A model generated the notes under the pieces. It worked only from the letters and a program-made list of their open reading frames with translations, was not told the origin of the DNA and made no database searches. Shown here in pieces: positions 44,124-64,000 of a stretch of 64,000 nt of DNA. Origin of the DNA: Alphaproteobacteria bacterium (GTDB lineage Bacteria > Pseudomonadota > Alphaproteobacteria > MPNO01); contig OY763326.1 of the NCBI GenBank assembly GCA_963667285.1, forward strand, positions 879,068 to 943,067. The letters run 5' to 3'. The translations under genes and the position numbers were made by a program. How positions within the stretch are numbered: position 1 is the first letter of the stretch; the number at the start of each line of letters is the position of its first letter.

Positions 44124-44134
44124 CCGCGCCGCCG

Positions 44135-44709: not shown

Positions 44710-45738
44710 CTACTGGAGCAGCGCGTTGTGCTTCTTCAACGCGGCTATCAACTCGTCATAGGCCTTGTCGGCGTCGATACCCTTCTTGGTCGCCCCTTCC
44801 GCCCAATGGGCGCGAATCGGCTTCGCCGCCGCATGCCATGCGTCCTGGGCTTCCCGCGGGATCGTGTAAACCTCATGCCCCTTCATGTTCTGCAGCTTGG
44901 TGCGGCCGAGGAATTCCCATTCGGTGAACGCCTCGGTCACCTTGCGCGCCCAATCCGGGGTGCAATGCGCATCGACCGCCTGCTTCTGGGCCGACGAGAA
45001 CTTGGCGTAGGTGCCCTTGTTCATGACCCAGATGAACGCGGTGGACGCGATCGGAAAGTCCATGTGGTATTTGAGAGGCTTGTGGATGCCCCAGATCTGC
45101 ATCGAGTTCCACGAGAAGAACACCGCGTCGGCAATGCCCCGCTCGACAAGGTCACGGGTATCGCCGCCCGGCGCGTAGACGCTGCTGCCCCCGAGGTTCT
45201 TGACCAGCTGGGCGATGGTGCCGTTCATCGGCCGGATCTTCAGGCCCTTGAGGTCCTGCGGCATCACGATCTTCCTGGGCTTGCTGGAGATGACACCCGG
45301 CTCCAGCGCATGCGCCAGGCAGAAATGGACGTCGTTCATCTCGTACTGAGCGTATTTCCGATACCACTCGGTCAAGGCCGTCGACGCGGGCCGGCTGTCC
45401 GACACCAGCAATGGCAGCTCGATCGCCGAGATTATCGGCCATCGACCGGGGATGAAGCCGGGGTTGTACCAGGCGATATCGACGATGCCGTCCTTCGCCA
45501 TGTCGTATTGATCCTTGGCCTTGCCAAGCTGCTGCGACGGGAAAATGGTGATCTTGATCGTCCCGCCTGACGCGTCCTCGACCGACTTGGCCCACGGCAC
45601 CATTCCCTTGGTGTGCAGCGGAAACTTTGCCGGCAGATGATGCGCATAGCGCAGATTGAAAGTCTTCTCGGCGGCCTTGGCGCCGGACAGCGCGAACGCG
45701 GCGACCAAACAGATAGCCAGAGCCGTCTTGGACCACAT
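44710..45738 (-). CDS. dctP: TRAP transporter substrate-binding protein (DctP family)
   Basis: Start MWSKTALAICLVAAFALSGAKAA (signal peptide). DctP-like body. The first about 140 codons of the track ORF are an artefact. Confidence 0.8.
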   Translation of the reverse strand: MWSKTALAICLVAAFALSGAKAAEKTFNLRYAHHLPAKFPLHTKGMVPWAKSVEDASGGTIKITIFPSQQLGKAKDQYDMAKDGIVDIAWYNPGFIPGRWPIISAIELPLLVSDSRPASTALTEWYRKYAQYEMNDVHFCLAHALEPGVISSKPRKIVMPQDLKGLKIRPMNGTIAQLVKNLGGSSVYAPGGDTRDLVERGIADAVFFSWNSMQIWGIHKPLKYHMDFPIASTAFIWVMNKGTYAKFSSAQKQAVDAHCTPDWARKVTEAFTEWEFLGRTKLQNMKGHEVYTIPREAQDAWHAAAKPIRAHWAEGATKKGIDADKAYDELIAALKKHNALLQ

Positions 45739-45794
45739 GGTAGCTGTCCTCCCCTTTTTTCTGGGATGAATTAGATGGAGCCGGGCGAGGGGGG

Positions 45795-46520
45795 TCAAGG
45801 TCGGTGCGCAGACCGGAAGGGATCGCCCCCGGGCACGACAAGCGTCTCCATCGGCACGTGGACGCTGCCGCCGGTATGGGCGGGGAAGAACCCGACATCG
45901 GCGCGCAGCGTCTCCCGGGCAGGCGAGGACAGCGCGGTCGACAGCGCCCGGGCGGAATCGAAAACCGCCTTGTTGCGCAGCAACGCCTCGGCGAACCGGA
46001 ACGGCAATCCGGAGACGACGACGGCCGGCGTGTCGACCGCGACCGCCCGGACGCCCGGCAACGCGGCGATCAGCGGCGCGTGTGTGGCCGTGTAGTGGTC
46101 GAGCCAGGCCTGCTCGTCTTCCGCCGGGCCGGGGTAATGGACAAGGTAGGAGCACAAGCGCGTCGCCCCGTCGGGGGCGGGATCGGGGACGGCGTAGAGG
46201 CGGCGAAGCATACCCTGTTGCGACACCGTCGCTCCGGCGAGGCCCGGCAGGAAACCGGGATCGGCGAGCCGCCGCAGGCCGGTGTCTTGCCGGAGAGCGC
46301 GTTCACAGCCCGCGACGTCCGCGAACTCCAGCTCGAGGGCCAACAGGGGCGCGTCGTCATCGCCGGTATGGGGATGAGGCGCGGGCAACGGCGTGTGGAC
46401 ATACGCGGTCTGGAGATCGGGAGCGCCGCCGACCGCCTCCACCACCCTTCCGCGCTCCGCGTCGGACAGGCCGCCGGTCGGCCCGCCACGATGAAAGAAG
46501 CAATACCAGGTCACAGGCAT
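45795..46520 (-). CDS. Hypothetical protein, possible tandem EthD-like / dimeric alpha+beta-barrel domains
   Basis: Two about 100-aa repeats with a similar pattern (YCFFHRGG...AYVHTP and CSYLVHYPGP...HYTATHAPL). Weak family assignment. Confidence 0.3.
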   Translation of the reverse strand: MPVTWYCFFHRGGPTGGLSDAERGRVVEAVGGAPDLQTAYVHTPLPAPHPHTGDDDAPLLALELEFADVAGCERALRQDTGLRRLADPGFLPGLAGATVSQQGMLRRLYAVPDPAPDGATRLCSYLVHYPGPAEDEQAWLDHYTATHAPLIAALPGVRAVAVDTPAVVVSGLPFRFAEALLRNKAVFDSARALSTALSSPARETLRADVGFFPAHTGGSVHVPMETLVVPGGDPFRSAHRP

Positions 46521-47784: not shown

Positions 47785-49221
47785 TCAGCGGGGGAGTTCG
47801 GAGGGGCGGCCGGTCAGCCAGGCATCGACCGCATGGGCGCATTGGCGGCCCTCGCGGATCGCCCAGACGACCAGGGACTGACCGCGGCGCATGTCGCCCG
47901 CGACGAAGACCTTGTCGCGCGAGGTCCGGTAGCTCTCGGTGTCGGCCTGCACATTGCCGCGCCCGTCGAGGGCAACGCCCAGCGCTTCGATCATGCCGTC
48001 CCGCACCGGTCCGGCGAAGCCCATGGCGAGCAGCACGAGATCCGCCTCGATCTCGCCTTCGGAACCGGGAACCGGGACGAAGCCCTCGCCGGGCCGGAAG
48101 CGCACCTGCCGGGTCGCGAGCGCGCGCACCCGGCCGGCCTCGTCGCCCAGGAAGGCCGTGGTCTCGATCTCGTAGAGCTGCTCGGAGCCTTCCTGCTGCG
48201 ACGGCGAAATGCGGAGCCGGCGGGGCCAGTAGGGCCAAACCAGGCTCAGATCCGGGTTCTCTTCCGGCTCGTCGAAGATTTCGAGCTGCACGATCCTCGC
48301 CGCGCCCTGGCGGGTTGCGGTGCCGATGCAGTCCGAGCCCGTGTCTCCGCCGCCGATCACGACGATATTGCGGCCGGCGGCGTCGATCCTGCCCGCCGGG
48401 GCGGGGTCGCGGGCATTGATGCGGTTCTGCTGCGGCAGGAACTCCATCGCGAAACGGATACCGCCCAGCTCCCGGCCGGGCGTTCCGGCCAGATCGCGCG
48501 GCGCCTCGGCCCCGCCCGCCAGCACCACGGCGTCGTGGGTCGCGACCAGCTCCTCGACATCGACGTTGACGCCGACATGCGCGCCGGTGCGGAAGACGAC
48601 GCCTTCCGCCGCCATCTGCGTCATGCGCCGGTCGATGAGGTGCTTCTCCATCTTGAAGTCGGGAATGCCGTAGCGGAGCAGGCCGCCGATGCGGTCCTCC
48701 TTCTCCATCAGCACGACATCGTGGCCGGCGCGGGCCAGCTGCTGCGCCGCGGCCATGCCGGCCGGCCCCGAGCCCACGACGGCGACGCGCTTTTCGCTGC
48801 GCTCCGCCGCTGGCTGCGGCTGGACCCAGCCCTCCTCGAAGCCCTTGTCGACGATCGCGCATTCGATGGTCTTGATGGTGACCGGATCGTCGTTGATGGT
48901 GAGGACGCAGGCTTCCTCGCAGGGGGCGGGGCAGATGCGGCCGGTAAACTCGGGGAAGTTGTTGGTCGAGTGCAGGTTGTCCAGCGCTTCCCGCCAGTCG
49001 TCGCGGTAGACTAGGTCGTTCCAGTCCGGGATCTGGTTGTTGACCGGACAGCCGTTGTGACAGAACGGGATGCCGCAATCCATGCAGCGCGCCGCCTGCT
49101 TGCGGTTGGCCTCGTCGCCGAGCGGCTCGACGAATTCCCGCCAGTGCCCGACGCGCTCCTCGACCGGGCGGTAGGGGCGTTCGCTGCGCCCGAATTCGAG
49201 GAAGCCGGTGACCTTACCCAT
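47785..49221 (-). CDS. gltD: Glutamate synthase (NADPH) small subunit
   Basis: 4Fe-4S region [20 protein letters not shown] Rossmann [14 protein letters not shown]. 478 aa. 8-bp overlap with gltB. Confidence 0.9.
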
Positions 49222-52200
49222 GCGCCTCGATCTTCCGGTCGGCGGCGGCCATTTCGGTCAGCGCGCGGCGGTATTCCACGGGCGTGACCTTGACGAACCG
49301 GTCCCGCGCGGCCTCCCAGTCCGCGAGCATGGCGGCGGCCACGGCGCTTCCGGTGTAGCGGCGGTGGCGCTCGACCATGCCGTAGAGCCGCGCCTCGTCA
49401 TGCCGCATCATGTCCTGCAGGTCGCGGGCTTCCCGTCCGCTGGCGGGGACCGCCTCCAGCATCACCCCCGCCAGGTTGCACCGCTCCTCGAACGTCCCGT
49501 CGGGGTCGTAGACATAGGCGATGCCGCCGCTCATGCCCGCGGCGAAGTTCCGCCCGGTGGAGCCCAGCACCGCGACGCAGCCCCCGGTCATGTATTCGCA
49601 GCCATGGTCCCCCACCCCCTCGACGACCGCCCAGGCGCCCGAATTGCGCACCGCGAAGCGCTCCCCCGCGACGCCGGAGAAATAGCATTCGCCCTCGATC
49701 GCCCCGTAGAGAACCGTATTGCCGACGACGATGTTCTCGCTCGGCACGTAGGGCGATGCGGCAGGCGGGCGGATGACCAGCCGGCCGCCGGAAAGCCCCT
49801 TCCCGACATAGTCGTTGGCGACGCCCTCGAGATGGATCGCCATGCCGCGCGTGGCCCACGCGCCGAAACTCTGCCCGCCGACCCCCTTCGCCTCGATGAC
49901 GATGCTGTCCTCGTCCAGACCCGCATGGCCGCGCCGCCTGGCGACCTCGCCCGCCAGCATGGCGCCGACCGTGCGGTTCACGTTGCGCACCTCCGTGCGG
50001 ATCCTGACCGGGCGGCCTTCCTCCAGCGCCGGCGCGGCGTCGGCGATCAGGCGGTTGTCGAGCGCGCGGTCGAGACCGTGGTCCTGCCCCTCGCTGTTGT
50101 GGATGTCGACGCCGGGACCGACCTCCGGTTTGAACAGCAGCCGGTTCAGGTCCACGCCATGCGCCTTCCAGTGGTCTTCCGCGCGGCGCATGTCGAGCCG
50201 GTCCGAGCGGCCGATCATCTCGTCGAAGCGCCGGAAGCCCAGCCGCGCCATGATCCGGCGCACTTCCTCGGCGACCAGGAAGAAGTAGTTGATCACATGC
50301 TCGGGCGTGCCGGCGAAGCGCCGCCGGAGCTCCTCGTCCTGGGTGGCGATGCCGACCGGGCAGGTGTTCAGATGGCACTTGCGCATCATGATGCAGCCGA
50401 TCGCGACCAGGGGCGCGGTGGAGAAGCCGAACTCGTCCGCCCCGAGCAGCGCGCCGATGGCGACGTCGCGCCCGGTGCGCAGCCCGCCGTCGACCTGCAC
50501 GGCGATGCGGGTGCGCAGATCGTTGAGCACCAGGGTCTGGTGGGTCTCGGAGAGGCCGATCTCCCAGGGCGAGCCGGCATGGGTGAGCGAGGTGACCGGC
50601 GAGGCCCCGGTGCCGCCCTCGAATCCCGAGATCGTGACATGGTCGGCCTTGGCCTTGGAGACGCCGGCGGCGACCGTGCCGACGCCGACCTCCGAGACCA
50701 GCTTGACGCTGATCCGCGCCGCCGGGTTCACGTTCTTCAGGTCGTGGATGAGCTGGGCCAGATCCTCGATGGAATAGATATCGTGATGCGGGGGCGGCGA
50801 GATCAGGCCGACGCCGGGGGTCGAGTGCCGCACCCGCGCGATGTTGCGGTCCACCTTGTGGCCGGGGAGCTGGCCGCCCTCGCCGGGCTTGGCGCCCTGC
50901 GCCATCTTGATCTGGATGTCGTCGGCGTTGACGAGGTATTCCGTGGTGACCCCGAAACGGCCGGAGGCGACCTGCTTGATCGCCGAGCGCATGTTGTCGC
51001 CGTTCGTCATCGGCGCGAAGCGATCGGCTTCCTCGCCGCCTTCTCCGGTGTTCGACTTGCCGCCGATGCGGTTCATGGCGATCGCCAGCGTGGTGTGCGC
51101 CTCGCGCGAGATCGAGCCGAAGGACATGGCGCCGGTCGCGAAGCGCCTCACGATCACGGATGCCGGCTCGACCTCCTCCAGCTTTACGCCGTTGCCGTCC
51201 TCGCGGAACTCGAACAGGCCGCGCAGCGTCATCAGCCTGCGGCTCTGGTCGTTCAGGATGGCGGCGAAGTCCTCGTAGCTCGCCGCGTCGTTGGCGCGCG
51301 CGGCATGCTGGAGCTTGGCGACCGTGTCCGGCTCCCACTGGTGGCGTTCGCCGCGCAGCCGGTAGGTGTATTCGCCGCCGACATCGAGCATGTCGCGGTA
51401 GATCGGCGCGTCGCCCCAGGCGGCGCGGTGGCGGGCCGCCGTTTCGGCCGCGATCTCGGCGAGCGAGGCGCCTTCCACCGTGGTGGCCGTGCCGGTGAAA
51501 TAGCGCTCGACGAGCTCGCTCGCCAGGCCGACCGCATCGAAGATCTGCGCGCCGCAATAGGACTGGTAGGTCGAGATGCCCATCTTGGACATGACCTTCA
51601 GCAAGCCCTTGCAGACGGCCCTTATGTAGTCCCGATGGACCTTCTCGCGGGTGAAGTCCGCCGGGAAGGCGCCGTCCTCGTGGAGCGCGTCGAGCGTCTC
51701 GAACGCGAGATAGGGGTTGACCGCCTCCGCCCCGTAGCCGGCAAGCACGCAGAAGTGATGCACCTCGCGGGCTTCGCCGGTCTCGAGCACGAGGCCCACC
51801 TCGGTGCGCGAGCCTTCGCGGATCAGGCGGTGGTGCACCGCCGAGCAGGCCAGCAATGCCGGCAGGGCGATCCGGTCCGGTCCGATCGCGCGATCGGACA
51901 GGATGAGGATGTTGAAGCCCCGTTCGACCGCCCGGCTGGCTTCGTCGCACAGCCGTTCGACGGCGGGCCCCAGGCCCGCCCCGCCCTCGGCGGCGTCCCA
52001 GGTGGCGTCCAGCGTCTCGGTCACGAACGCCCCGCCGACCAGATCGGCCACATGGCGGATCTTGTGGAGGTCGCTGTCGGTCAGGATCGGTTGCGACACT
52101 TCGAGACGGCGATGCGTGCCGCCGCTGTCCAGGTCGAGCAGGTTGGGGTGGGGTCCCACCATCGAGACCAGCGACATCACCAGCTCTTCCCGGATCGAAT

Positions 52201-53800
52201 CGATGGGCGGGTTGGTCACCTGGGCGAACAGCTGCTTGAAATAGGTGTAGAGCAGCTTCGGTCGTTCGGAGAGGACGGAGAGCGGCGTGTCGGTGCCCAT
52301 CGACCCGACCGGGTCGTCGCCGTGCTCGCCCATCGGCCGCAGGAAGACCTCGAGATCCTCCTTGGTGTATCCGAAGGCCTGCTGGCGGTCGAGCAGATCG
52401 CCCGCCCGGGACCGGTTGCTCGCCGCGAGCGGCGGCGCCTCCAGCTCGTCGAGCTGGAAGGCGGTGTCGGCGAGCCACTGGCCGTAGGGGTGCGAGCGCG
52501 CGAGCTCGGTCTTGAGCTCGCCGTCGTCGACGATGCGGCCCTGTTCCAGGTCGATCAGGAACATCTTGCCGGGCTGCAACCGCCATTGCTGGGCGATGCG
52601 CTCCGGCGGGATGTCGAGCACGCCCACCTCCGACGCCATCACCACGAGACCGTCCGTGGTCACCAGATAGCGCGCCGGGCGCAGGCCGTTGCGGTCCAGC
52701 GTGGCGCCGATCTGCCGTCCGTCGGTGAAGGCCACCGCCGCCGGCCCGTCCCACGGCTCCATCAGCGCCGCGTGGTACTCGTAGAAGGCGCGTCGTTCCG
52801 CGTCCATCAGCGGGTTGCCGGCCCAGGCCTCGGGAATCAGCAGCATCATCGCATGGGCGAGCGAATAGCCGCCCCGGACCAGCAGCTCCAGCGCATTGTC
52901 GAAGCAGGCGGTGTCCGACTGTCCGGGCGGGATCAGCGGCCACAGCTTCTCCAGATCCTCGCCGAACAGCTTCGAGCTGGTCGCGTGCCGGCGCGCCGCC
53001 ATCCAGTTGAAGTTGCCGCGCACGGTGTTGATCTCGCCGTTGTGGCAGATCATCCGGTAGGGATGCGCCAGCCGCCATGAAGGGAAGGTGTTGGTCGAAA
53101 ACCGCTGGTGCACGAGCGCCAGCGCGGACGCCATCCGTTCGTCCTGAAGGTCGAGGTAGTAGTCGCCCAGCTGCGGCGCGAGCAGCATGCCCTTGTAGAC
53201 GATGGTGCGGCAGGAGAGAGAGGCGATGTAGAAGTCGTCGAGGCCGGGCGTGTCCTCTTCCGCGGCCCCGTTCTCGATCCGCTTGCGGATGACGAACAGC
53301 TTGCGCTCGAAGGCATCGCCCGGAGCGGTGTCGCTGCCCCGTCCGACGAAGATCTGGCGCACCACCGGCTCTGTGGTCGCCACCGTCGGCCCCAGGATTG
53401 CGCTCGCGACGGGGACCGTGCGCCAGCCGGCGACGCGCTGGCCTTCCTCGCCCACGATGCGCTCGACCAGCGCCTCGCAGGCGAGGCGCGCCGCTTCGGA
53501 GCGCGGCAGGAAGACGGCGCCGACCGCATAGTCGGCCTCGTCCGGCAGGTCGATGCCGGCCTCCGGCGCGACGGCGCGGAAGAGCGCGTCGGGCTTTTGC
53601 AGCAGGATGCCGGAGCCGTCCCCGGCCAGCGGATCGGCGCCGACCGCGCCCCGGTGGTCCAGGTTCAGCAGGATTTCGAGGCCCTGCCGGACAATGCGAT
53701 GGGACTTGCGGTTCCCAATATCGACCACGAAGCCGACGCCGCAGCTGTCGTGCTCGTTACGCGGATCGTAGAGTCCCTGCTTGGGCGGCAACGCAGACAA
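49214..53800 (-). CDS. gltB: Glutamate synthase large subunit
   Basis: 1528 aa. N-terminal amidotransferase Cys in [13 protein letters not shown] and 3Fe-4S domains. GXXDGG C-terminal domain. Confidence 0.95.
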
Positions 53801-53986: not shown

Positions 53987-55060
53987 TCAGCTTTCGACCG
54001 GATGGTTCCAGCCGTGGCGGTCCTCGATGCGGCCGTACTGGATGCCGGTAAGCTCGTCGTGGAGGGATTTGGTGAGCGGCGCTTCGCCCGCCCGCCGGGG
54101 AATCAGGTCGCGCCGCCTGAAGTTCAGCCGGCCGACCGGGAGCACGACCGCGGCGGTTCCGGTGACGAACACCTCTTCGAGCGCGCCGCCGTCGCACGCA
54201 CCGACGATTTCGTCGATCGCAACTTCCCGCTCCTCGACGGCGATGCCGCGGTCGGCCAGCAGGGCGATGATGCTCTCCCGGGTCACGCCGGGAAGGATCG
54301 CGCCGTTCAGCGCCGGCGTGACGACGCGGTCGCCGAGCTTGAAGAACACGTTCATCAACCCGGCCTCCTCGACATAGCGGTGCTCGCTGCCGTCGAGCCA
54401 GAGAACCTGGTCGAACCCGTCAGCGCGCGCCAGCCGGCCGGCGGAAAACGTCGTCGCGTAGTTGGCCGAGGTCTTGGCCTCGCCCACCCCGCCATGCGGG
54501 GCGGTCCGCGCGAAACGATCCTCGACCTTGAGCGACAGGCCGCTATCGCCGCTCCTGAAATACGCCCCGACCGGACAGGTCATGACGATGAACCGGTAGG
54601 CGTTCGACGGCCGGACCTCGAGATGCGATTCCGCGCTGAAAACGATCGGCCGGATATACAGCCCGTGGCCCGGCCGGTCGGAAATCCAGCCGCGGTCGAT
54701 AGCGACCAGCCGGGTCACCGCCGCGACGAAGTCGTCCTCGTCGATCTCGGGAATGCACATGCGCCGGCACGAAAGCCGCAGCCGCCTGGCGTTGCGGTCG
54801 GGACGGAAGACGCGGACCCTTCCGTCGACGCCGACAAACGCCTTCAGCCCCTCGAACGCCATCTGGGCGTAGTGCAGCGTCATCGCGCCCGGTTCGATGG
54901 GGATCGGGCCGTAGGGGACGATCTCCGGATCGCGCCACGCGCCGTCCCGCCACGCCATGGCGAACATGTGGTCGGAAAAGACCTCGCCGAATACCAGCCG
55001 GTCGAGATCGAGATCCCCCAGCCGGCTCCGTTCGGTCAGGCGGACAACCAACCCGTCCAT
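53987..55060 (-). CDS. ilvE: Class IV aminotransferase (branched-chain amino-acid aminotransferase-like)
   Basis: FSDHMF...LHYAQMAFEGLKAF BCAT signature. 357 aa. The gene symbol is tentative. Confidence 0.8.
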   Translation of the reverse strand: MDGLVVRLTERSRLGDLDLDRLVFGEVFSDHMFAMAWRDGAWRDPEIVPYGPIPIEPGAMTLHYAQMAFEGLKAFVGVDGRVRVFRPDRNARRLRLSCRRMCIPEIDEDDFVAAVTRLVAIDRGWISDRPGHGLYIRPIVFSAESHLEVRPSNAYRFIVMTCPVGAYFRSGDSGLSLKVEDRFARTAPHGGVGEAKTSANYATTFSAGRLARADGFDQVLWLDGSEHRYVEEAGLMNVFFKLGDRVVTPALNGAILPGVTRESIIALLADRGIAVEEREVAIDEIVGACDGGALEEVFVTGTAAVVLPVGRLNFRRRDLIPRRAGEAPLTKSLHDELTGIQYGRIEDRHGWNHPVES

Positions 55061-55099
55061 CTCTGTTCCCCGTGCTGCCGCGGGCCCGAAATCCGGGCG

Positions 55100-56089
55100 T
55101 CAGGACAGCAAGTCTATCGTTTTCCCCACCCCGGCCGCCCGGGCCCGCCGGTAAATCGACCACGCGAGCGGCATGTCGACACTCCCGAGGCCGGTCGGTA
55201 TCGCCATGATGCGGTCCCGATCGCCATGGCGGCCGGGGCGGTTCCCGAGGACGATATCGCCGAAGGAGGTGAAATCGTCCGGCAGCTCCAGATCGGGGCG
55301 CCGCTGCGCCGCGGCGGCCCGCAGCCCCGCGTCGTTGTCGGCGACCAGCAGGTCGAGGACTTCGAACGCCTCGTCTTCCCAGGCGGTCAGCACATCGAGC
55401 GGTATGGCCAGCATGCCGGGCGTCCACCAGCCGGCCTTGAGCGGCCGTTCCGATCCTTGCGGTATCGACGAGACGACGATGTCCATGCCGCGAACCGCAT
55501 CCTCGGCGGTGTCCACCGGGGTCAGGGTCCAGCTCCCCTCCTCCGCCATGACGGCGCAGAATTTCTCGCGGCTCGCCGGCGTGCGCGATGCGACGAAGAC
55601 GTCCTTGAGGGTGGGGAACAGGGCCGACAGCACCCTGAGAGACCACATTCCGAGGCCGCCGCACCCGACCAGGCCGAGACGCACCGGGTCGCGGCGCGCG
55701 CAGTGCCTGGCGGCGACCGCGCCGCAGGCCGCCGTCCGCACGAAGGTGATCCACATGCCTTCCATGATCGCCACGGGCAGCCCGTGTTCGGGATCGTTGA
55801 GGACGATCAGCCCGGAGGAGTCGGGAAACCCGCGCTCGGTGTTGCCGGGGTAGTAGGAGATCCACTTCATCCCGAGCGCCTTTTCCCCGGCGACCCAGGC
55901 CGGCATGGCGTGCAGGAAGCTGTGCGGACGATCGGGATGCACGCCCGCCTTCACCGGCACCTCGACCTCGCCCCTCCCGTCCATGCGGTAGGTGTGTTCG
56001 ACCATCTCGACGATGTCCGCGAGCGGCGGCGCCACCGCCGCGATATCGGCGCTGTCGAGCAGGAGCTGTTCGGGGAACCGCGCTGTCAT
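55100..56089 (-). CDS. Ornithine cyclodeaminase / mu-crystallin family protein
   Basis: 329 aa. Rossmann LGLVGCGGLGMW. OCD-family N-terminal pattern. Confidence 0.85.
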   Translation of the reverse strand: MTARFPEQLLLDSADIAAVAPPLADIVEMVEHTYRMDGRGEVEVPVKAGVHPDRPHSFLHAMPAWVAGEKALGMKWISYYPGNTERGFPDSSGLIVLNDPEHGLPVAIMEGMWITFVRTAACGAVAARHCARRDPVRLGLVGCGGLGMWSLRVLSALFPTLKDVFVASRTPASREKFCAVMAEEGSWTLTPVDTAEDAVRGMDIVVSSIPQGSERPLKAGWWTPGMLAIPLDVLTAWEDEAFEVLDLLVADNDAGLRAAAAQRRPDLELPDDFTSFGDIVLGNRPGRHGDRDRIMAIPTGLGSVDMPLAWSIYRRARAAGVGKTIDLLS

Positions 56090-56104
56090 CCTCTCAGGCT
56101 CCCG

Positions 56105-57421
56105 TCACCGGGTCATCAGGCCCGGCAGGGACAGGGAAATCTCCGGGAAGGCCATGATCAGGGCCATGGCGATGACGTCGCAGATCAGGAAGGGAACCGC
56201 CGCCCGGATGATGTGGCCCATGGTCGTGTCGGGCGGCGACACGCCCTTCATGACGTAGAGCAGGATGCCGTAAGGCGGGGTGGTCTGCGCCATCTCGATG
56301 TTGATCAGGAACAGGACGAGGAACCAGATCGGGTCGTAGCCCAGCTGCTTCACCACGGGCAGGAAGACCGGCAGGGTGATCAACATCAGGGGCACGCCCG
56401 AGATGAAGCCGCCGAGGATCAGGATCACGAACTGCATCATGACGATGAGCACCAGCGGCGCCACCGGGAGCCCGACGGCCCATTGCACGAGATACCGGTT
56501 CGCGCCGGTGAACGCGAGCACCTGGGAATAGGCCTGGGCGGCGGCGAGGATGATCAGCACCATCACCGAAATTCGCAGCGTGCTCTCGATCGCCTCGCGC
56601 GTGACCTTCCGGTTGAGCCCGCCATAGCAGGCGGCGAGGACGAATGAGCCGGCGGTGCCGAGCGCCGCCGCTTCGGTCGGCGTGGCGACGCCGAGAAAGA
56701 TCAGCCCGACGACGAGGAACACGATGAGCCCGAGCGGCAGGACGTATTTGACGGTGAGCGAAATCTTCAGCCCGAGCGGCACCCTCTCGATCGCGTAGCG
56801 GGGCGCGAGGTCGGGCTGCAGATAGCAGCGGACGATGATGTAGGAGGCATAGAGCACCGCCATCAGAATGCCCGGCAGGACGATCGCGATCAGCAGCTTG
56901 CCGACCGACACCTCGGCCAGCACCGCCAGGATCACGCCGAGCCCGCTCGGCGGGATCATGATCGCGAGCCCGCCGCTGCCGAGCAGCGGGCCGATGCTCA
57001 TGGGTTTCTTGTAGCCCCGCGATTCGAGCTCGGGCGCGAGCGTCGCGCCGAGCATCGCGGTGGTCCCGATGCTGGCGCCGCTGAGCGAGGCGAGCACCGT
57101 CCCCGACGCCACGGCGAGCAGCGACAGGCGCCCGGGCAGGTTTCCGAGCCATTTGTCGAGCGCGTCGATCATGCGCGCCGCCACACCCGCCCGGAACATC
57201 ACCTCGCCCATCAGCACAAACAGCGTTATCGGCAGCAGGACGAAGACCGTCAGGCTGCCATAGGCGCTGTTGACCATCTGTTCGAGACCGGCCTCGCCGC
57301 CCATCAGCAGGAACATGCCCACGATGTTGACCGCGAAGAACGCGAAGACCACCGGAACCCCGACGAACAGCAGGGTGAAGAGCGCCCCCAGGATCAGCGC
57401 GATGGACCAGTACCATTCCAC
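56105..57421 (-). CDS. dctM: TRAP transporter large permease (DctM family)
   Basis: 438 aa. DctM motifs (TPTEAAALGTAG, TPPYGILLYV). Confidence 0.9.
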   Translation of the reverse strand: MEWYWSIALILGALFTLLFVGVPVVFAFFAVNIVGMFLLMGGEAGLEQMVNSAYGSLTVFVLLPITLFVLMGEVMFRAGVAARMIDALDKWLGNLPGRLSLLAVASGTVLASLSGASIGTTAMLGATLAPELESRGYKKPMSIGPLLGSGGLAIMIPPSGLGVILAVLAEVSVGKLLIAIVLPGILMAVLYASYIIVRCYLQPDLAPRYAIERVPLGLKISLTVKYVLPLGLIVFLVVGLIFLGVATPTEAAALGTAGSFVLAACYGGLNRKVTREAIESTLRISVMVLIILAAAQAYSQVLAFTGANRYLVQWAVGLPVAPLVLIVMMQFVILILGGFISGVPLMLITLPVFLPVVKQLGYDPIWFLVLFLINIEMAQTTPPYGILLYVMKGVSPPDTTMGHIIRAAVPFLICDVIAMALIMAFPEISLSLPGLMTR

Positions 57422-57445
57422 GCCGGTTTCCTCCCGCTGCGCGCG

Positions 57446-57958
57446 CTAGAGGTCGACTTGCATGTCGCCGGACCGCTGCTCGGCGGGGGACCGTATCAGC
57501 CTCCAGGAATCCCTCACCAATTGCACCAGGAAGACGGCGCTTCCCAGGGGGATAACCGCAAGCACGATGAAGATGGGAACTTCCTCGACCTTGAAATAGT
57601 CGTATTCGTTGGTCAGGAATTTCTCCCACGTGACCTTGCTGCCCTGCCAGACCAGCACCAGGCAGACGCAGATCCCGAGCAGCAGTCCGAAGAGCTCGGA
57701 GGCGAGGCGGGTCCGCTTCCCGAACCGCGTCACCAGGATGTCGAGGCGGACATGGCCGCCCCGCTGCTGCAGCCAGGCGGCGCCGAGGAACGCGATGAAG
57801 AGCAGGCTCCACTCGTTGAGCGCGATCACCCAGCGGATGGACTCGCCGAAGAAATAGCGCGAGCCGACATCGGCGGACACGCTGACGACCTGGAAGATCA
57901 GCAGCGCGCCGGCGATCCAGGCGAAGGCGTTGACGATCCTGTCGAATACCGCCCCCAA
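57446..57958 (-). CDS. dctQ: TRAP transporter small permease (DctQ family)
   Basis: 170 aa, four TM segments. Confidence 0.8.
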   Translation of the reverse strand: MGAVFDRIVNAFAWIAGALLIFQVVSVSADVGSRYFFGESIRWVIALNEWSLLFIAFLGAAWLQQRGGHVRLDILVTRFGKRTRLASELFGLLLGICVCLVLVWQGSKVTWEKFLTNEYDYFKVEEVPIFIVLAVIPLGSAVFLVQLVRDSWRLIRSPAEQRSGDMQVDL

Positions 57959-58016
57959 ACGGTGCCTCCGCCCGAGCGTTGCCTGGATTGCCGGAAAGCC
58001 CCGCGATGACGGGGCG

Positions 58017-59009
58017 TCAGCGCGTGATCATCTTGCGGATCTTCGCGTACTGCTCGGGCGCCAGTCGCTTCTTCATGACCGCCCAGCGCGATTCGTTGGC
58101 TACGTCCACCCATTTCTTCGCTTCGTCGGCGGGCAGGCCGATGAACTTCACGCCGCTTTTCTGCAACTTGGCCATCTCGGCCGCCTTCAGCTCCTTGCCC
58201 TTCGGAACCATGAAGCGTTCCATCTCGGCCTGTTCGTCGAGCATCAACTTCTGCGCGGCGGCGGACAGCTTGTTCCACTTGCCGCGGTTGATGAAGCTGA
58301 ACACCGTGTGCGCCGGCCAGAACGCGTCGGCCATCGCGCAGCAGATGACTTCGTGAATGCCGATATTCGTTGCCGCCAGCGGAAACGGCGCCGCCTGCAC
58401 GACGCCGCGCTCGAGCCCGGGATAGATCTCGGAAATCTTCATGTGGATCGGCGACGCGCCGATCGCCTTCATGAAGGGATCGTAACCCGAGTGGGACCGG
58501 ATCTTGACGTTCTTCAGATCCGCCATCCGGTTGATCGGCTTCTTGGAGAAAATATGGAAACCCACATCGGTCGCGGTGCGTCCCATGACCTTGATGCCGA
58601 TCTTCTTGTGCGCTTCGTCGAGAAGATCGATGTATCCGACCTCGCGCTCTTCCTTCGGCGATATCTCCGACATGCCCACGGTACCGATCTCCGGCACCAG
58701 CGCCTGATGGATGGTGAAGGTCATCACCATGTCGGAGATGCCCTTGCTCGTCGCGTTCATCTGGTCGCGCAGCGGGACGACCGACGGCCCGCCGATATAG
58801 TCGAGCTTGAGGACGCCCTTGCCGGCCTCGTTCACCCGCTCGATGAAGCGCCTGAACATCACCATGCTGGGGTAGTTTCGATCCGGCTGCGAGAATGTGA
58901 CGACGCGCAGCGTCGTCTCGGCCGCCGTGGCCGGGAGAGCGAAACAGACCGCCGCCGCCGCACATGCGGAAAGCGCCGCTATACGCATCGTGAGGTAAGC
59001 CGATTTCAT
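58017..59009 (-). CDS. dctP: TRAP transporter substrate-binding protein (DctP family)
   Basis: Start likely MKSAYLTMRIAALSACAAAAVCFALPATAAE (signal peptide). An alternative start lies at 59042. Confidence 0.75.
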   Translation of the reverse strand: MKSAYLTMRIAALSACAAAAVCFALPATAAETTLRVVTFSQPDRNYPSMVMFRRFIERVNEAGKGVLKLDYIGGPSVVPLRDQMNATSKGISDMVMTFTIHQALVPEIGTVGMSEISPKEEREVGYIDLLDEAHKKIGIKVMGRTATDVGFHIFSKKPINRMADLKNVKIRSHSGYDPFMKAIGASPIHMKISEIYPGLERGVVQAAPFPLAATNIGIHEVICCAMADAFWPAHTVFSFINRGKWNKLSAAAQKLMLDEQAEMERFMVPKGKELKAAEMAKLQKSGVKFIGLPADEAKKWVDVANESRWAVMKKRLAPEQYAKIRKMITR

Positions 59010-59235
59010 GGGTTTTCCTCCCCTGTAACGAGCCCCCGGCATTGCGCGAGGCGGTCGGGTGTCTGCTGCGAATGAACCGGTCGGCGCGCCCCGCCGTCGG
59101 CCTCACCGCGTATGCGGAGGGACGCGGCTCACTCCGCTGAGGAAGTCATGGTAGCGCCGATTCGCCGGCCGGAGCAAATTGCCGGTTATCCGGACGCGCG
59201 CGCCGCGCTCGATCCGGTTCGACCCATTCCCCGGG

Positions 59236-60387
59236 TCAATCGACCACGAAGAGCTCCCAGCCCGGATCGGTCGAGAGTATTTCGCAGCCGTGCTCGCGGA
59301 TGACCACGTGCTCTTCCGGGTTCACCAGCCCGTCCGGGCTCTCGATCTTGGGCTCCGGGGTGAGCGTCATGCCGACCTGGAGAACGGTCGGGTCGAACCG
59401 GTTGATCGACGGCGGTTCGGTCTCCAGTCCGATGCCGTGCCCGATGCGCTTCGCCGGGTGATCCGAATAGTTGACGAAATCGGTCCTGGCCAGCAGGGAC
59501 TGGGAATACTCGAAAATTTCCGACATGCCGGTTCCCGGGGTCATGCGGTCCATCACCTTGAACAGGATTTCCCACATACCGTCATGCTCGCGGCGCTGCC
59601 GGTCGCTCGGCGGGCCGAACACCGCCCGGCGGGTAAAATCCATGTGATAGCCCTCGAAATGGCAGCCGCCGTCGAGATAGAGCACGTCGCCCGCCTGAAA
59701 CGCGCCGCCGGGCCCGGTCGCGCCCAGCGCGGTCGGCGGTCCGGAATCCAGATCCGCCCCCTCCTCGAAGTAATAGGCGATGATGCGCTTCTGGATTTCG
59801 GCGGACGTGATGCCGGGGTGGAGCTCCTCGATGCAGCGTTTCCACGCCCGGCCGCCGATCGCACAAGCCTCGCGCTGCGCCTCGATCTCCCACTCCGACT
59901 TTATCATCCGGCAGCCCCAGACGACGGGACCGGACTCGACGAAACGGACGCCGGGCAGATCGTCCTGCAAGCGAATGAAATCGCCATGCGGGATACCGAG
60001 CCATGTCTCGCGCCCGAGCTCGATCCCGATCGTGGCATCCAGCAGCCCGCGATCCTCGAGGACGCCGCGTATGCCCCAGTCCACCCGTTGGTCGGTGTTG
60101 AACGGCACCTCGGGATAGATGCGGCGGTCCTCGACCCAGGATGGGTAAGGCCGGTCGTAGAGGCGCGCGAACATTCCCGGGCCCGACCAGCTTATGACCG
60201 CGGCCTCCCCCTCCAGGGGAAGGATGAAAATATTCGGCCGCTGCCTCATCCATGCCGGCGCCCGCTGACCGCTGAAATAGTAAAAGGTCGTCGGGTCGGT
60301 CACCACGAGACCGTCCATGCCGCGCTCGCTCATGAGCGAGCGCGCGTGTGTTTTCCGGGTTTCGTACTCGCTCGCCGGGACGGCCAT
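59236..60387 (-). CDS. M24-family metallopeptidase (creatinase/prolidase/ectoine-hydrolase-like)
   Basis: Pita-bread C-terminal domain with metal ligands (HGIGLETEPP, DGGCHFEGYHMDFTR). Creatinase-type N-terminal domain. 383 aa. Confidence 0.8.
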   Translation of the reverse strand: MAVPASEYETRKTHARSLMSERGMDGLVVTDPTTFYYFSGQRAPAWMRQRPNIFILPLEGEAAVISWSGPGMFARLYDRPYPSWVEDRRIYPEVPFNTDQRVDWGIRGVLEDRGLLDATIGIELGRETWLGIPHGDFIRLQDDLPGVRFVESGPVVWGCRMIKSEWEIEAQREACAIGGRAWKRCIEELHPGITSAEIQKRIIAYYFEEGADLDSGPPTALGATGPGGAFQAGDVLYLDGGCHFEGYHMDFTRRAVFGPPSDRQRREHDGMWEILFKVMDRMTPGTGMSEIFEYSQSLLARTDFVNYSDHPAKRIGHGIGLETEPPSINRFDPTVLQVGMTLTPEPKIESPDGLVNPEEHVVIREHGCEILSTDPGWELFVVD

Positions 60388-60518
60388 CGAACACCTCTTT
60401 GGAAATACCGGCTGTCGCGCAACAATGAGCTTATGCGACCGCCATCCCGGCTTCAACTCAGGACGCCACCGGTTCCCGCCTGTTGCCCGGACGGCGGCCC
60501 GATGATATGGGGTCGGTC

Positions 60519-61772
60519 ATGAAGACCGTGTTCAGCAACGCGAACGTCATCGACGGAAAGGGCGGCGCGTTCCACGGTTTCGTCGTGGTCGAGGGCAGGG
60601 AAATCGTTCGTGTCGGCCACGGCGAACCCCGCCTGTCCACCACCGGGTACGAGGTCGTGGACCTCGGAAACAAGTGCCTGCTGCCCGGGTTCTTCGACTG
60701 CCACGTCCATCTGCGCTCGGACGGGCTCGCCGATCCGCGCGCCCAGGTGCTGTCCGACACGGATGCGCTCTGCGCCTTGCGGTCCGCGCGCAATGCCAGG
60801 CGCACGATCGAAGCGGGGATCACCACGATACGGGATTGCGGGTCGACCAACTTCGTCGATTTCTCGGTGCGCCGGGCGGTGGAACAGGGGCTGGTTCCCG
60901 GCCCCCGCATGGTGCTGTCGGGCAAGATCATCTGCATGACCGGCGGTCACGGGTGGAACGTGGGGCAGCAGGCGGACGGTCCGGACGGGGTTCGCAGGGC
61001 GGCGCGCGAGCAGCTGCGCGCCGGGGCGGACAACGTCAAGCTGATCGCGACCGGCGGCATCCTCACGCCGGGCACCGAAATCGGCAGCGCCCAGCTCACC
61101 GTCGACGAGCTGCGCGCCGGTGTCGAAGAGGCGAAGAAGGCCGGCGCCATCTCGGCCGCGCACGCGCATGGCGCGACCGGCATAAGGAATGCGGTGCGGG
61201 CGGGCATCGACTCGATCGAGCATGGCTATTTCCTCGATGACGAGGGTATCGAGCTGATGCTCGAACGCGGCACCTATCTGGTGGCCACGTCGGCCGCGGT
61301 GAGGAATGTCGCGACGCGGGGCGTCGAGGACGGCTTGCTGCCCGATGTTCACAGAAAGGCCTGCGAGGCCGTCGACAGCCATATCGAGAGCTTCGGCAGG
61401 GCCTGGCGCGCCGGCGTCAAGCTGGCGATGGGAACCGATTCCGGCGTTCCCTTCACGCGCCACGGACGAAATCTCGAAGAACTCGCGCATCTGGTGGAGA
61501 TGGGTCTCGGCCCCATGGAGGCGATCCAGGTCTCGACGCTCGGCAGCGCGCGGCTGCTGCGGCTCGACGACCGTCTTGGCAGCATCGAGGAAGGCAAGCT
61601 GGCCGACCTGGTCGTGTGCGACGGAGATCCGCTGCGCGATATCGCGGTCCTTCAGGACAAGGACCGCATCGAGTGGGTGGTCAAGGACGGCGAGGTCGTG
61701 ATTCGCCGCGGCGGCGCCCGCGCCACCGGGGACGCACCGGCGTGCGACACATTCTCTCCAACGCCCGCATAA
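60519..61772 (+). CDS. Amidohydrolase-family metal-dependent hydrolase
   Basis: NANVIDGKGG start. FFDCHVHL metal ligands. Internal HAHGA/HG motif. 417 aa. Confidence 0.75.
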   Translation: MKTVFSNANVIDGKGGAFHGFVVVEGREIVRVGHGEPRLSTTGYEVVDLGNKCLLPGFFDCHVHLRSDGLADPRAQVLSDTDALCALRSARNARRTIEAGITTIRDCGSTNFVDFSVRRAVEQGLVPGPRMVLSGKIICMTGGHGWNVGQQADGPDGVRRAAREQLRAGADNVKLIATGGILTPGTEIGSAQLTVDELRAGVEEAKKAGAISAAHAHGATGIRNAVRAGIDSIEHGYFLDDEGIELMLERGTYLVATSAAVRNVATRGVEDGLLPDVHRKACEAVDSHIESFGRAWRAGVKLAMGTDSGVPFTRHGRNLEELAHLVEMGLGPMEAIQVSTLGSARLLRLDDRLGSIEEGKLADLVVCDGDPLRDIAVLQDKDRIEWVVKDGEVVIRRGGARATGDAPACDTFSPTPA

Positions 61773-62965
61773 TCGACGGCACCGGAGAGGTCCTCGCGGA
61801 CCGTTTCATCGTCGTCGAGGACCGGACGATCGCCGACATCGCTCCGATGTCCCGCTTCCCCGAAACGCCCGCGGGCGAGGTCTTGGACGTTTCCGGCCTC
61901 TCCGTGATGCCGGGGATGATCGACTGCCATGTGCATCTGTCCATCGACGGCGACGCCGACCCCATCGCCCAGGTGGTGGGCGACACCGCGGCGATGTCAG
62001 TCCTTCGCATGGCCCGCAACGCCGAGCGCACGATCTCCGCCGGCGTGACGACGGTGCGCGATCTGGGCGCCAGGGACCATATCGACATGTCCTTCCGGCG
62101 TGCCCTCGCCGAGGGCTTGCCGATGGCGGCGCCGCGGCTGGTCCTGAGCGGCCGGCCGGTCACCATGACGGGCGGCCATTGCTGGCAGTTCGGCCGTCAG
62201 GCCGACGGGGTCGACGACGCGAGGCGGGCGGCGCGGGAACAGATTCGCGCCGGCGCGGACTGCATCAAGCTCATGGCGACCGGCGGTATCCTGACCCAGG
62301 GCAACGAGATCGGCGCGGCGCAGCTCGAGGAAGCGGAGATGCGCGCCGCCATCGAGGAGGCCGACAAGGCGGGAAAGCTGAGCGCCGTCCACGCGCATGG
62401 CGCGTCGGGGATCAAGAACGGCATCCGGGCCGGCGTGCAGAGCGTCGAACATGCCTATTTTCTCGACGACGACGGCATCGACATGATGCTGAAGCGCGGC
62501 GTGTGGCTGGTCCCCACCGCGGCCGCGGTCGACCTCGTGGTGAAGAACGGGATCGGATCCGGGATACCGCCCGATGTGGTGGAGAAGGCCGGGTCCGCGG
62601 TGGAAAGCCAGCGCGCGTCCTGCGCCAGGGCGCTCAAATCCGGCGTCAGGATCGCGATGGGCACCGATGCGGGCACGCCCTACAACCGGCACGGCGAGAA
62701 TGCCCAGGAACTCGCCGCGCTCGTATCGCTCGGCATGACGCCCATGGATGCCATCCGCGCGACCACGATCCGGGGGGCGGAACTCCTCGGTCTGTCGGAC
62801 CGGCTGGGAACCGTGCAGGTCGGAAAGACGGCGGACATCCTGGTCGTCGACGGGGACCCGCTGGCGGATATATCCATCCTCCGCGCCCGCAAGCGCATCG
62901 CGATGGTGTTCCAGGACGGCGAAATCGTGGCGCGTCGCGGAGAGATCGTGGCGTCGGGATCCTGA
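61741..62965 (+). CDS. Amidohydrolase-family metal-dependent hydrolase (tandem paralog)
   Basis: Collinear with the upstream gene (NARIIDGTGE, MIDCHVHL, AVHAHGASG). GTG start inferred. Overlaps the 3' end of the upstream paralog by about 30 bp in another frame. Confidence 0.7.
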
Positions 62966-63046: not shown

Positions 63047-64000
63047 TCAGCCGCCATCCACCAGCGGCATCACCCTGGAGGCGAAGGTCTCCAGCCCTTC
63101 CATCATCGGGTAGAAATGCACCAGCGGGCAGTCGATGCCGATCGATTCCAGGTAGCGCAGCCGATCGGCGATCTGGCGGGGCGTGCCGACCAGGCCGGCG
63201 CCGAGACCCTTGGCGGCGACCGCGGAGACCGGGTCGCGGCCGCCATACTCCTCGAGCTCCCGGACGCGCTCCTCGGCCTCGCCGGCGCTCTCGGTGCAGA
63301 TGACATGCGCGCTGACGCCGTAGGACAGCGACCGGCCGCACTCCACGGCCCGCCGGTCGAGCTCGTCGATGTCGCGGGCGAAGTTGGCCAGGTTGGCGTC
63401 GGCGTTGGCATAGCCCGGATCGTAGGCGACGAACCACGCGTCGCAGGCCCGCGCCACCACCTCCCTGCCCGCCTCGGAGCGGCTGGCGGCATAGATCGGC
63501 GGGTTGGGAAGCTGGACCGGCCTGATCGGCAGCCGCCCCGACTCGCAGCGGTAGAACTCGCCCTCCAGGGTGAAAGTCTCCTCGGTCCAGAGCCCCTTCA
63601 TCACGTCGACGAACTCCCCCATCCGGCGGTAGCGGGCGTCCGACTGGTCGAGCCAGCCGCCGTTGCCGAAGACGTCGAACTCTTCCTCGTACCAGCCGTT
63701 GACGACGTTGACCGCGAACCGCCCGCCGCTGATGCGGTCGAGCGAGGCCCCCATCTTGGCGGCAAGCTGGGGCGGGACGATGCCGGGGTGGACCGCGCAC
63801 ATAAGCTCGATCCGCCGCGTATGCGCGATCAGTGCGGAAGTCAGCATCCAGGCCTCGAGATCGGGGCCCAGATGGCGCTCGGCGATCAGCGTGGTCTCGA
63901 AGCCCAGCGCCTCGGCGCGCCTGACGACATCGACCGCTATGCGGAACGACTTGTCGACATCGCCGCCGGCGCCGGGCGTGCGCAGATCGGAAACCGCGTC
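63047..64000 (-). CDS. LLM-class flavin-dependent oxidoreductase (N-terminus beyond the window end)
   Basis: Luciferase-like TIM-barrel pattern. The reading frame stays open to the window edge (AEALGFETTLIAERHLGPDLEAW) upstream of the first listed Met. Confidence 0.7.
   Translation of the reverse strand, partial: DAVSDLRTPGAGGDVDKSFRIAVDVVRRAEALGFETTLIAERHLGPDLEAWMLTSALIAHTRRIELMCAVHPGIVPPQLAAKMGASLDRISGGRFAVNVVNGWYEEEFDVFGNGGWLDQSDARYRRMGEFVDVMKGLWTEETFTLEGEFYRCESGRLPIRPVQLPNPPIYAASRSEAGREVVARACDAWFVAYDPGYANADANLANFARDIDELDRRAVECGRSLSYGVSAHVICTESAGEAEERVRELEEYGGRDPVSAVAAKGLGAGLVGTPRQIADRLRYLESIGIDCPLVHFYPMMEGLETFASRVMPLVDGG

Follow-up and report, generated by a model that had tools for sequence, protein, structure and literature searches.

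We analysed the eight-gene locus at positions 53987-62965 of a 64,000-nt stretch of alphaproteobacterial DNA (contig OY763326.1, assembly GCA_963667285.1; hereafter the window), which encodes an M24 metallohydrolase, a tripartite ATP-independent periplasmic (TRAP) transporter, an ornithine cyclodeaminase (OCD)-family enzyme, a class IV aminotransferase, and two amidohydrolases, Amd1 and Amd2. The reading we favour, with confidence that is evenly balanced, is that the locus is one form of an operon, conserved among proteobacteria, that takes up and breaks down a small carboxylate-bearing amide, most likely of the dipeptide or N-acyl-L-amino acid type. The gene content, the intact catalytic residues, the family placement of the products, and the conserved linkage of the genes were observed directly. 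Literature searches for these genes together brought up ectoine papers and unrelated work only, with no description of the operon; a match to a GapMind preprint was discarded because it concerned an unrelated M20 amidohydrolase.

The G+C content of the window is ~68%, which gives rise to many long spurious open reading frames (ORFs), and the real genes were chosen among the ORFs by family matches. The start codons of M24, DctP, Amd1, and Amd2 were refined by homologue lengths and Shine-Dalgarno (SD) sequences; the extents in the ORF list before refinement were 59236-60456, 58017-59042, 60483-61772, and 61616-62965, respectively. The minus-strand order given in a preliminary description of this DNA (M24, dctPQM, OCD-family gene, class IV aminotransferase gene) was recovered in full, with strong Pfam matches throughout. 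The unit starts with the gene for the M24B-like metallohydrolase (59236-60387, 383 aa, ATG at 60387; Creatinase_N and Peptidase_M24, 7e-29). Downstream of a 226-nt spacer (59010-59235) are dctP for the solute-binding protein (58017-59009, 330 aa; DctP, 8e-26), of which the start at ATG 59009 was placed by the SD sequence GGGGAGGA and homologue length, dctQ for the small permease (57446-57958, ~170 aa with an uncertain start codon; DctQ, 2e-26), and dctM for the large permease (56105-57421, 438 aa; DctM, 7e-72; TIGR00786, 277 bits against a cut-off of 268). These three adjacent genes provide a complete TRAP set. They are followed by the gene for an OCD/mu-crystallin-family NAD(P) enzyme (55100-56089, 329 aa; OCD_Mu_crystall, 2e-43; PF02423, 148.9 bits) and, as the last gene, by ilvE for the aminotransferase (53987-55060, 357 aa; Aminotran_4, 5e-32). 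The genes from dctP to ilvE are separated by 15-58 nt, with an SD-like sequence at every junction, including the 39-nt gap between the OCD gene and ilvE. The two divergent, overlapping amidohydrolase genes of the preliminary description are on the plus strand: Amd1 (60519-61772, 417 aa, ATG at 60519; Amidohydro_1, 2e-59) and Amd2 (61742-62965, 407 aa; Amidohydro_1, 6e-61). Since Amd2 starts at GTG 61742, the overlap is 31 nt, compared with 157 nt in the ORF list.

Related loci were collected by a pattern scan built on an alignment of M24 relatives, with one genome per species, which yielded 56 loci. The closest ones, with 87-95% protein identity, are in Defluviicoccus and other alphaproteobacterial metagenome-assembled genomes (MAGs). 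Further loci were found in Rhodospirillales, Hyphomicrobiales (Pseudolabrys, Microvirga, Aquibium, Nitratireductor, Microbaculum), and Paracoccus, as well as in the betaproteobacterial Alcaligenaceae and Burkholderiales (Pusillimonas, Pigmentiphaga, Neopusillimonas), and a few came from Acidobacteriota, Tectomicrobia, and Actinomycetes. The carriers are soil, sludge, marine, and sponge-associated bacteria. Those in culture include Rhodoplanes sp. Z2-YC6860, Paracoccus sp. S-4012, Nitratireductor arenosus CAU 1489, Aquibium sp. A9E412, Pusillimonas caeni KCTC 42353, and Pigmentiphaga daeguensis JCM 14330. When the window proteins were mapped onto these loci and all ORFs of the loci were clustered, three recurrent architectures emerged. 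Type A, of Hyphomicrobiales and Rhodobacterales, has a LysR gene in the opposite direction to a series of amidohydrolase, aminotransferase, M24, OCD, dctP, dctQ, dctM, and amidohydrolase genes. Type B, of Betaproteobacteria, runs in one direction from MarR through aminotransferase, gamma-glutamyltransferase (GGT), in some cases an amidohydrolase, M24, and OCD genes, and continues with dctPQM or a TctC-type receptor gene. Type C, of the window and its relatives, has two amidohydrolase genes divergent from M24, dctPQM, OCD, and aminotransferase genes. ORF clustering also showed a MarR regulator in 10 loci and a LysR regulator in 7 loci, and identified GGT (338 bits, just below the cut-off of 358) as a neighbour in 13 loci.

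Linkage was counted within ~6-7 kb of M24 in 53 loci. An OCD gene was present in 42/53 and a class IV aminotransferase gene in 41/53 of them; amidohydrolase genes were found in 26, TRAP systems in 19, GGT in 9, and receptors of the tripartite tricarboxylate transporter type in 7. Because many contigs are short, these counts are lower bounds. A search started independently from the binding protein instead of M24 retrieved the same operon: Rhodoplanes sp. Z2-YC6860 has a DctP orthologue with 50% identity in a compact type-A operon whose genes are 4-40 nt apart, and another DctP relative with 45% identity is likewise located in such an operon. A relative with 44% identity is instead surrounded by aromatic ring dioxygenase genes, which sets the limit of the orthologue group. 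Synteny over more than 50 loci, together with this reciprocal look-up, bears out the earlier proposal that the genes belong together and shows that they form one functional unit, not a chance neighbourhood.

The aminotransferase provides the firmest assignment. The window enzyme scored 406.7 bits with NF009897 (cut-off 307) and 326.9 bits with TIGR01123 (cut-off 250), which classifies it as a type II branched-chain aminotransferase (BCAT) with predicted activity toward Leu, Ile, and Val with 2-oxoglutarate. The preliminary description had called it a BCAT or D-amino acid aminotransferase; only the first part was upheld, and the identity as a D-amino acid transaminase was rejected by scores of 32-43 bits against cut-offs of 277-320. 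The aminotransferases of type-A and type-B operons are only 23-30% identical to the window enzyme and pass the type I IlvE models (355-419 bits, cut-off 279). All of the 12 operon-linked aminotransferases tested passed BCAT equivalog cut-offs, four as type II (the window and three other loci) and eight as type I. This swap is best described, from model scores, as a non-orthologous replacement within one operon context. Since two non-orthologous BCAT lineages occur in the same context, it is likely that BCAT activity itself is needed, and hence that the pathway yields a branched-chain L-amino acid, or a similar aliphatic one, or has the corresponding 2-oxo acid as an intermediate. The entire operon, including a type I ilvE, was also observed on a 609-kb megaplasmid of Microvirga sp. 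M2 (L026, NZ_CP134065.1), which suggests that the operon BCAT is an accessory rather than a housekeeping copy. A tblastn search of 72,556 plasmids with M24 gave no match at E ≤ 1e-40.

On the same strand, 186 nt 3' of ilvE, there is gltB for the large subunit of glutamate synthase (49214-53800; domains GATase_2, Glu_syn_central, Glu_synthase, and GXGXG), and the next ORF (47785-49221, minus strand) may be gltD. It could be argued that no common pathway exists and that a peptidase, a transporter, and housekeeping genes are neighbours by chance, with ilvE belonging to gltBD; gltB follows ilvE in the window and in its nearest relative, L001, and the 226-nt spacer between M24 and dctP could divide transcription units. 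We regard this as hardly credible. The families recur together in two proteobacterial classes and in several gene orders, so that synteny largely refutes the idea, and outside the window and L001 ilvE keeps company with M24 and OCD genes and not with gltB.

The two amidohydrolases indicate the kind of bond that would be cleaved. Both belong to the Cc2672/Sgx group of carboxypeptidase-like dipeptidases (Cc2672, Sgx9359b, Sgx9355e/2QS8, Sgx9260c, ochratoxinase, and CaeD/ColD), with which they share the fold, the HxH-K-H-H-D site, and 200-257 bits; those members that have been characterised split off the C-terminal L-amino acid of a dipeptide or an N-acyl amino acid. The best PDB match of Amd1 was 2QS8 (257 bits), followed by 3MTW/Cc2672 (238 bits), whereas that of Amd2 was 3MTW/Cc2672 (240 bits), followed by 3BE7/3DUG (224 bits). 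Lower-ranked matches of both were 3MKV, 3FEQ, ochratoxinase, and ochratoxin A (OTA)-degrading amidohydrolases. 2QS8 is an Xaa-hydrophobic dipeptidase, Arg or Lys is removed from the C-terminus by 3DUG and Cc2672, and 3MKV, of Xaa-Pro specificity, acts on Gly/Ala/N-acyl-Pro (PMC11342369). The Cc2672 relatives CaeD and ColD remove the C-terminal L-leucine from aryl-carbonyl-leucine, and the metal ligands of CaeD and Cc2672, including a carbamylated Lys, were used to identify those of Amd1 and Amd2 (PMC5636949). The binuclear metal site (HxH, K, H, H, D) is kept in both, and the motifs DCHVH, K, HAHG, EH, and GTD are at least 95% conserved among 36 operon-linked sequences. Amd1 (352.8 bits) and Amd2 (343.6 bits) stay under the cut-off of 500 of NF051886 (Caulobacter Xaa-Pro dipeptidase), and with 35-40% identity to the solved relatives their exact specificity cannot be read. 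The similarity of Amd1 to 2QS8 fits the presence of a BCAT in the operon.

The amidohydrolases had been described as tandem genes. They are neighbours and 54% identical, but a recent tandem duplication was rejected, as they fall into separate old clades of a neighbour-joining tree of the 36 sequences, which points to old paralogues. The downstream amidohydrolases of type-A operons make up a third clade. Genes of the Amd2 clade are missing from most operon versions, and the clades imply that each version keeps either two different amidohydrolase paralogues or one plus GGT.

The OCD-family protein resembles archaeal alanine dehydrogenase (AlaDH) and SbnB more than cyclodeaminases or EutC. It scored 155.6 bits with archaeal AlaDH, 152.3 with SbnB (cut-off 327), 96 with pyrroline-2-carboxylate (Pyr2C)/piperideine-2-carboxylate reductase, 94 with the cyclodeaminase model NF006141 (cut-off 408), 88 with EutC (TIGR02992, cut-off 471.65), 71 with BhcD, and 52 with ornithine cyclodeaminase (NF005762, cut-off 350), all NCBIfam equivalog scores being far under the cut-offs. 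The best PDB matches were 1omo/1vll (AlaDH), 6t3e, and 4m54; in bits, AlaDH reached 112, the Thermococcus Pyr2C reductase 109, SbnB 98, mu-crystallin 71, lysine cyclodeaminase 56, and the Pseudomonas putida OCD 43. An alignment of 47 operon-linked orthologues showed conservation of K47, of K75 and R118, which correspond to the carboxylate-binding Lys and Arg of the superfamily, of the GCGGL nucleotide-binding (Rossmann) motif, and of D232. K47 aligns with the Lys of AlaDH, where mu-crystallin and Pyr2C reductase have Arg, and the position of D232 is Asp in AlaDH and SbnB but Ser in mu-crystallin. Thus AF1665 AlaDH, SbnB, and the Thermococcus Pyr2C reductase are the best profile and PDB matches, and the Lys/Lys/Arg/Asp pattern of the active site aligns with AlaDH, although the protein remains under half of the cut-off of each of these families. 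Oxidative release of an amine, as by AlaDH or SbnB, is more likely than plain ketimine reduction or cyclodeamination, to judge from these alignments. An exact-sequence look-up of the protein matched no record, and a literature search found no AlaDH/SbnB/Pyr2C-type enzyme in an operon with an M24 hydrolase and a BCAT.

SbnB acts on an N-substituted glutamate and releases 2-oxoglutarate. By analogy, the OCD enzyme could oxidatively split an N-(carboxyalkyl) secondary amine of the opine kind into a branched-chain amino acid and 2-oxoglutarate after the amidases have stripped acyl or lactam groups. This route is attractive because its two cleavage products are exactly the substrates of a BCAT, because all 12 operon-linked aminotransferases tested are BCATs, and because the SbnB score nearly equals that of AlaDH and the conserved Asp is kept. 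We nevertheless consider it improbable, since the SbnB cut-off was missed, three amidases are hard to account for, and sludge, soil, and sponges are no typical opine niches.

The M24 protein has numerous family members of 383-385 aa, whose annotation goes no further than 'Xaa-Pro dipeptidase/aminopeptidase' or 'M24 family metallopeptidase'. It shares the two-domain architecture and the five metal ligands with prolidase/PepQ and aminopeptidase P, which are its best PDB sequence matches. The ligands D239, D250, H317, E345, and E358 show no variation among 17 family members and coincide in the alignment with those of Pyrococcus prolidase. In Escherichia coli aminopeptidase P, His243, His350, and His361 are substrate-binding histidines that do not serve as ligands, as known from mutant studies. 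The M24 protein has no His at any of these positions. An invariant Lys313 occupies the position of His350, and the histidine of the 'HE' motif is deleted, giving GHGIGLE-T/N-EPP, so that AKRIGHGIGLE-T-EPP stands in place of the HxxGHGxGLxxHE of prolidases. No PepQ or PepP model was passed (archaeal PepQ NF040821, 76 bits against 630; NF008131, 39 against 465), and the DoeA models failed as well (DoeA_2 NF038259, 82.9 bits against 575; DoeA TIGR02993, 65.9 against 613). In the PDB sequence search Pyrococcus prolidases ranked first (87 bits, catalytic domain only) and DoeA next (71 bits, full length), and a family-profile search left prolidases ahead of DoeA. The AlphaFold2 (AF2) model (pLDDT 82.6) is least confident at residues 309-326, where the changes at His350 and 'HE' are located. 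Foldseek with this model placed Xanthomonas prolidase (24% identity) and Halomonas DoeA (23%) at the same E-value of 1.1e-23, and creatinases lower (19-20% identity, ~1e-19). Creatinase gave no PDB sequence match at E ≤ 1e-3 and was the lowest structural match, and it was rejected as a model. The protein is thus equidistant from prolidase and DoeA and does not group with generic Xaa-Pro peptidases. It is most probably a metal-dependent hydrolase of its own clade, orthologous neither to generic Xaa-Pro peptidases nor to DoeA or creatinase, and its activity is predicted from the intact metal site.

These assignments bear on a route for basic dipeptides, in which an Amd2-type enzyme would free Arg or Lys, M24 would act as an amidinohydrolase like creatinase, the OCD enzyme would cyclodeaminate ornithine or lysine to proline or pipecolate, and the BCAT would take the hydrophobic partner. 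Its appeal is that the best solved relatives of Amd2, Cc2672 and 3BE7/3DUG, are L-Arg/Lys carboxypeptidases, that M24 carries a Creatinase_N domain, and that ornithine and lysine cyclodeaminases sit in the OCD family. We give this route little credence: creatinase is the most distant M24 relative and is not known to have a full di-metal site, which M24 retains, the OCD protein is nearer to AlaDH and SbnB than to ornithine cyclodeaminase, and most operon versions do without the Amd2 clade.

The TRAP binding protein argues for a ligand with a carboxylate. The operon DctPs form their own group with 43-95% identity, beyond which identity drops to 33%. The AF2 model of DctP (pLDDT 91.8) has Bpro_4736 (4mnc, 25% identity) and the lactate-binding TTHA0766 (2zzv, 23%) as nearest structures, with TM scores of 0.74-0.87. 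R171 is invariant in 40 sequences, is located within strand 169-172 of the model, and, in the ungapped phmmer register, is at most one residue away from SiaP Arg147. The arginine at this position pairs with the substrate carboxylate in TRAP binding proteins (PMC4646407), and the ligand of the operon DctP therefore probably bears a carboxylate. This arginine is common to the operon DctP, TTHA0766, and Bpro_4736, the closest solved structures of the TakP/lactate type, whereas the low identity and the separate grouping distinguish the operon proteins from them. The aromatic-catabolism context of the neighbouring DctP clade and the ligand in 4MNC, probably benzoylformate, both suggest that hydrophobic monocarboxylates are handled in the wider clade. 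Among the 59 PDB sequence matches of DctP at E ≤ 1e-3 there was neither UehA nor TeaA (3FXB, 2VPN/2VPO); TeaA appeared as structural rank 39 with 17% identity, a relation by fold alone.

The preliminary description had placed the locus beside ectoine catabolism while regarding it as distinct from known ectoine loci. Ectoine clusters contain the EutD/DoeA and EutE/DoeB pair, EutABC for hydroxyectoine, Atf, Ssd, the transporters UehABC or EhuABCD, and the regulators EnuR and AsnC (PMC5924519, PMC13188858). Like these clusters, the present operon is a catabolic locus that unites an M24 protein with Creatinase_N, a TRAP importer, an aminotransferase, and an OCD-family enzyme, and an ectoine-like route can be drawn: M24 would open a cyclic amidine or imino acid in the manner of DoeA, an amidohydrolase would replace DoeB, and the OCD enzyme and the aminotransferase would process a diamino acid. 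M24 is structurally as near to DoeA as to prolidases and aligns with DoeA over its full length, its loss of the peptidase His triad would suit a non-peptide substrate, M24, OCD, and TRAP genes also make up ectoine loci (PMC5924519), and amidohydrolases acting on N-acyl amino acids could perform a DoeB-like step. We consider the route very doubtful. None of the three proteins compared with ectoine-specific models or sequences (M24, OCD, and binding protein) matched them, and the DoeA and EutC cut-offs were missed by wide margins. Genes for DoeB/EutE, EutA, EutB, DoeC/D, Ssd, and EnuR are absent from 53987-62965; as to the DoeB-type deacetylase, whose absence had been stated before, each of the eight genes is of another family, with no exhaustive scan of the window outside this range. 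Neither an EnuR (MocR/GabR-type) nor an AsnC regulator is encoded in 53987-62965, and related loci have LysR or MarR instead. Moreover, the aminotransferase is a class IV BCAT and not of the Atf/DoeD type, it occurs in two non-orthologous forms that an ectoine-type diamino acid would not need, and two Cc2672-type amidohydrolases are added. The ectoine-like framing was thus abandoned and the distinctness retained: in our assignment from gene families, the locus is no ectoine pathway, and the likeness is confined to the family make-up (M24, OCD, TRAP).

The 131-nt region 60388-60518 between the divergent M24 and Amd1 genes is a putative control region. An alignment of the window with L001-L004 revealed a conserved TTGAA-N17-CATAAG/CATAGG element facing M24, which resembles -35 and -10 sequences and is adjoined by a partly palindromic GTCGC..GCGAC stretch upstream of M24; the two could be a promoter and operator. 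A simple sigma-70 scan did not pick up this element, and in a consensus scan of the locus promoter and terminator sites were no more frequent than in shuffled sequence, with no convincing terminator between genes. No regulator gene is present in 53987-62965 or adjacent to the control region, and an Rfam search of the window found no RNA element. The M24-dctP spacer contains an inverted repeat (GCGGAG...CTCCGC), and its counterparts in close relatives are 115-540 nt long; an internal promoter or processing site is possible there. In the 58-nt dctP-dctQ spacer, just past the dctP stop, we observed a G+C-rich hairpin (GCCCCG-TCATC-GCGGGGC followed by TTTCC; ~57985-58016, minus strand). It was not picked up by the terminator scan and may be a partial attenuator that favours expression of the binding protein over the permease.

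From these data we infer the substrate class, the order of the steps, and co-transcription as follows. The TRAP system would import the compound through its specialised DctP with the carboxylate-binding arginine. The two binuclear-metal amidohydrolases of the Cc2672/Sgx type would cut the amide before a C-terminal L-amino acid, a step in which GGT would replace one of them in other lineages, and the atypical M24B metallohydrolase would then cut a further, non-standard amide. The branched-chain or hydrophobic amino acid released would be transaminated by the BCAT of the operon, and a second amino or imino acid product would undergo NAD(P)+-dependent oxidative deamination or C-N cleavage by the AlaDH/SbnB-like OCD enzyme. 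The suggestion of a small amide as substrate, made in the preliminary description, fits the presence of three metallo-amidases.

Several points weigh against the dipeptide or N-acyl-amino acid reading. Apart from the BCAT and DctM, no protein passes a curated equivalog cut-off. Such a substrate leaves the histidine loss of M24 and the substrate of the OCD enzyme unexplained: without the three substrate-binding histidines of Xaa-Pro peptidases, M24 may be no peptidase at all, and an AlaDH/SbnB-like enzyme is not compelling in simple dipeptide catabolism. The solved binding proteins closest to DctP, at 23-25% identity, take 2-oxo or 2-hydroxy monocarboxylates such as lactate and not peptides. 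The related loci were selected by M24 patterns and are mostly from MAGs, which makes the counts biased and incomplete. Lastly, the window BCAT could be partly housekeeping, as its 186-nt adjacency to gltB is shared with the nearest relative L001 alone and a BCAT is absent from the equivalent position in the close relatives L003 and L004. A rather unlikely alternative is a novel pathway for a natural compound so far unrecognised as a nutrient, in which M24 would act as a hydrolase but not as a peptidase, for instance by opening the ring of a cyclic amide or amidine, and the AlaDH/SbnB-like enzyme would split a secondary amine; the products of this cleavage, a branched-chain amino acid and a 2-oxo acid, would both be consumed by the BCAT.

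Other genes recur near the operon. LIV-type ABC systems were found in a few loci, and acyl-CoA dehydrogenases with a FadB-like enzyme in loci of sponge symbionts. A fused protein similar to indolepyruvate-ferredoxin oxidoreductase (IOR; TPP_enzyme_C, POR, and DUF6537) is encoded beside the operon in three loci (L024, 15393-19105; L026, 3775-7489; L058, 9799-13322) and may consume the 2-oxo acid made by the BCAT. These neighbours are consistent with the breakdown of amino acids and of the 2-oxo acids derived from them. Two to three paralogous M24(-OCD) loci were observed per genome in two cases, L004, L007, and L021 on contig CBDFNA010000003.1 and L003 and L008 in one Defluviicoccus MAG. One of the paralogous loci has TRAP genes, and the others have genes for a 2-oxoglutarate-Fe(II) oxygenase, a fumarylacetoacetate (FAA)-hydrolase-family protein, a tautomerase, a major facilitator superfamily (MFS) transporter, or a Rieske oxygenase. 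The M24 family seems to have diversified within this lineage, perhaps toward several substrates.

Elsewhere in the window there is a second, unrelated TRAP system (42822-46155, minus strand), with a DctM-containing ORF that is possibly a fused DctQM (42822-44414) and a DctP-containing ORF (44710-46155). On the other side of the locus, a luciferase-like monooxygenase gene (63047-64000, minus strand) is nearest to SfnG and alkanesulfonate monooxygenase; an N-terminal truncation was considered and rejected, since its reading frame continues past the end of the window.

The operon is built from known enzyme families, none of them mechanistically surprising so far, and is of the kind of binding-protein-dependent catabolic operons for small nitrogenous acids. 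None of its enzymes has more than a generic name ('M24 family metallopeptidase', 'amidohydrolase', 'ornithine cyclodeaminase family', and the like). The replacement of one BCAT type by the other offers an unusually firm handle on one step and is an example of how neighbourhood evidence can fix part of a pathway. Identification of the substrate would account for the recruitment of two unrelated BCAT types to one operon and would correct annotations that drift toward 'ectoine utilisation' or 'prolidase'. It would at once give a function to an M24 subfamily, an OCD subfamily, three amidohydrolase clades, and a group of TRAP binding proteins, and would reveal a small nitrogen-rich compound that these bacteria scavenge.

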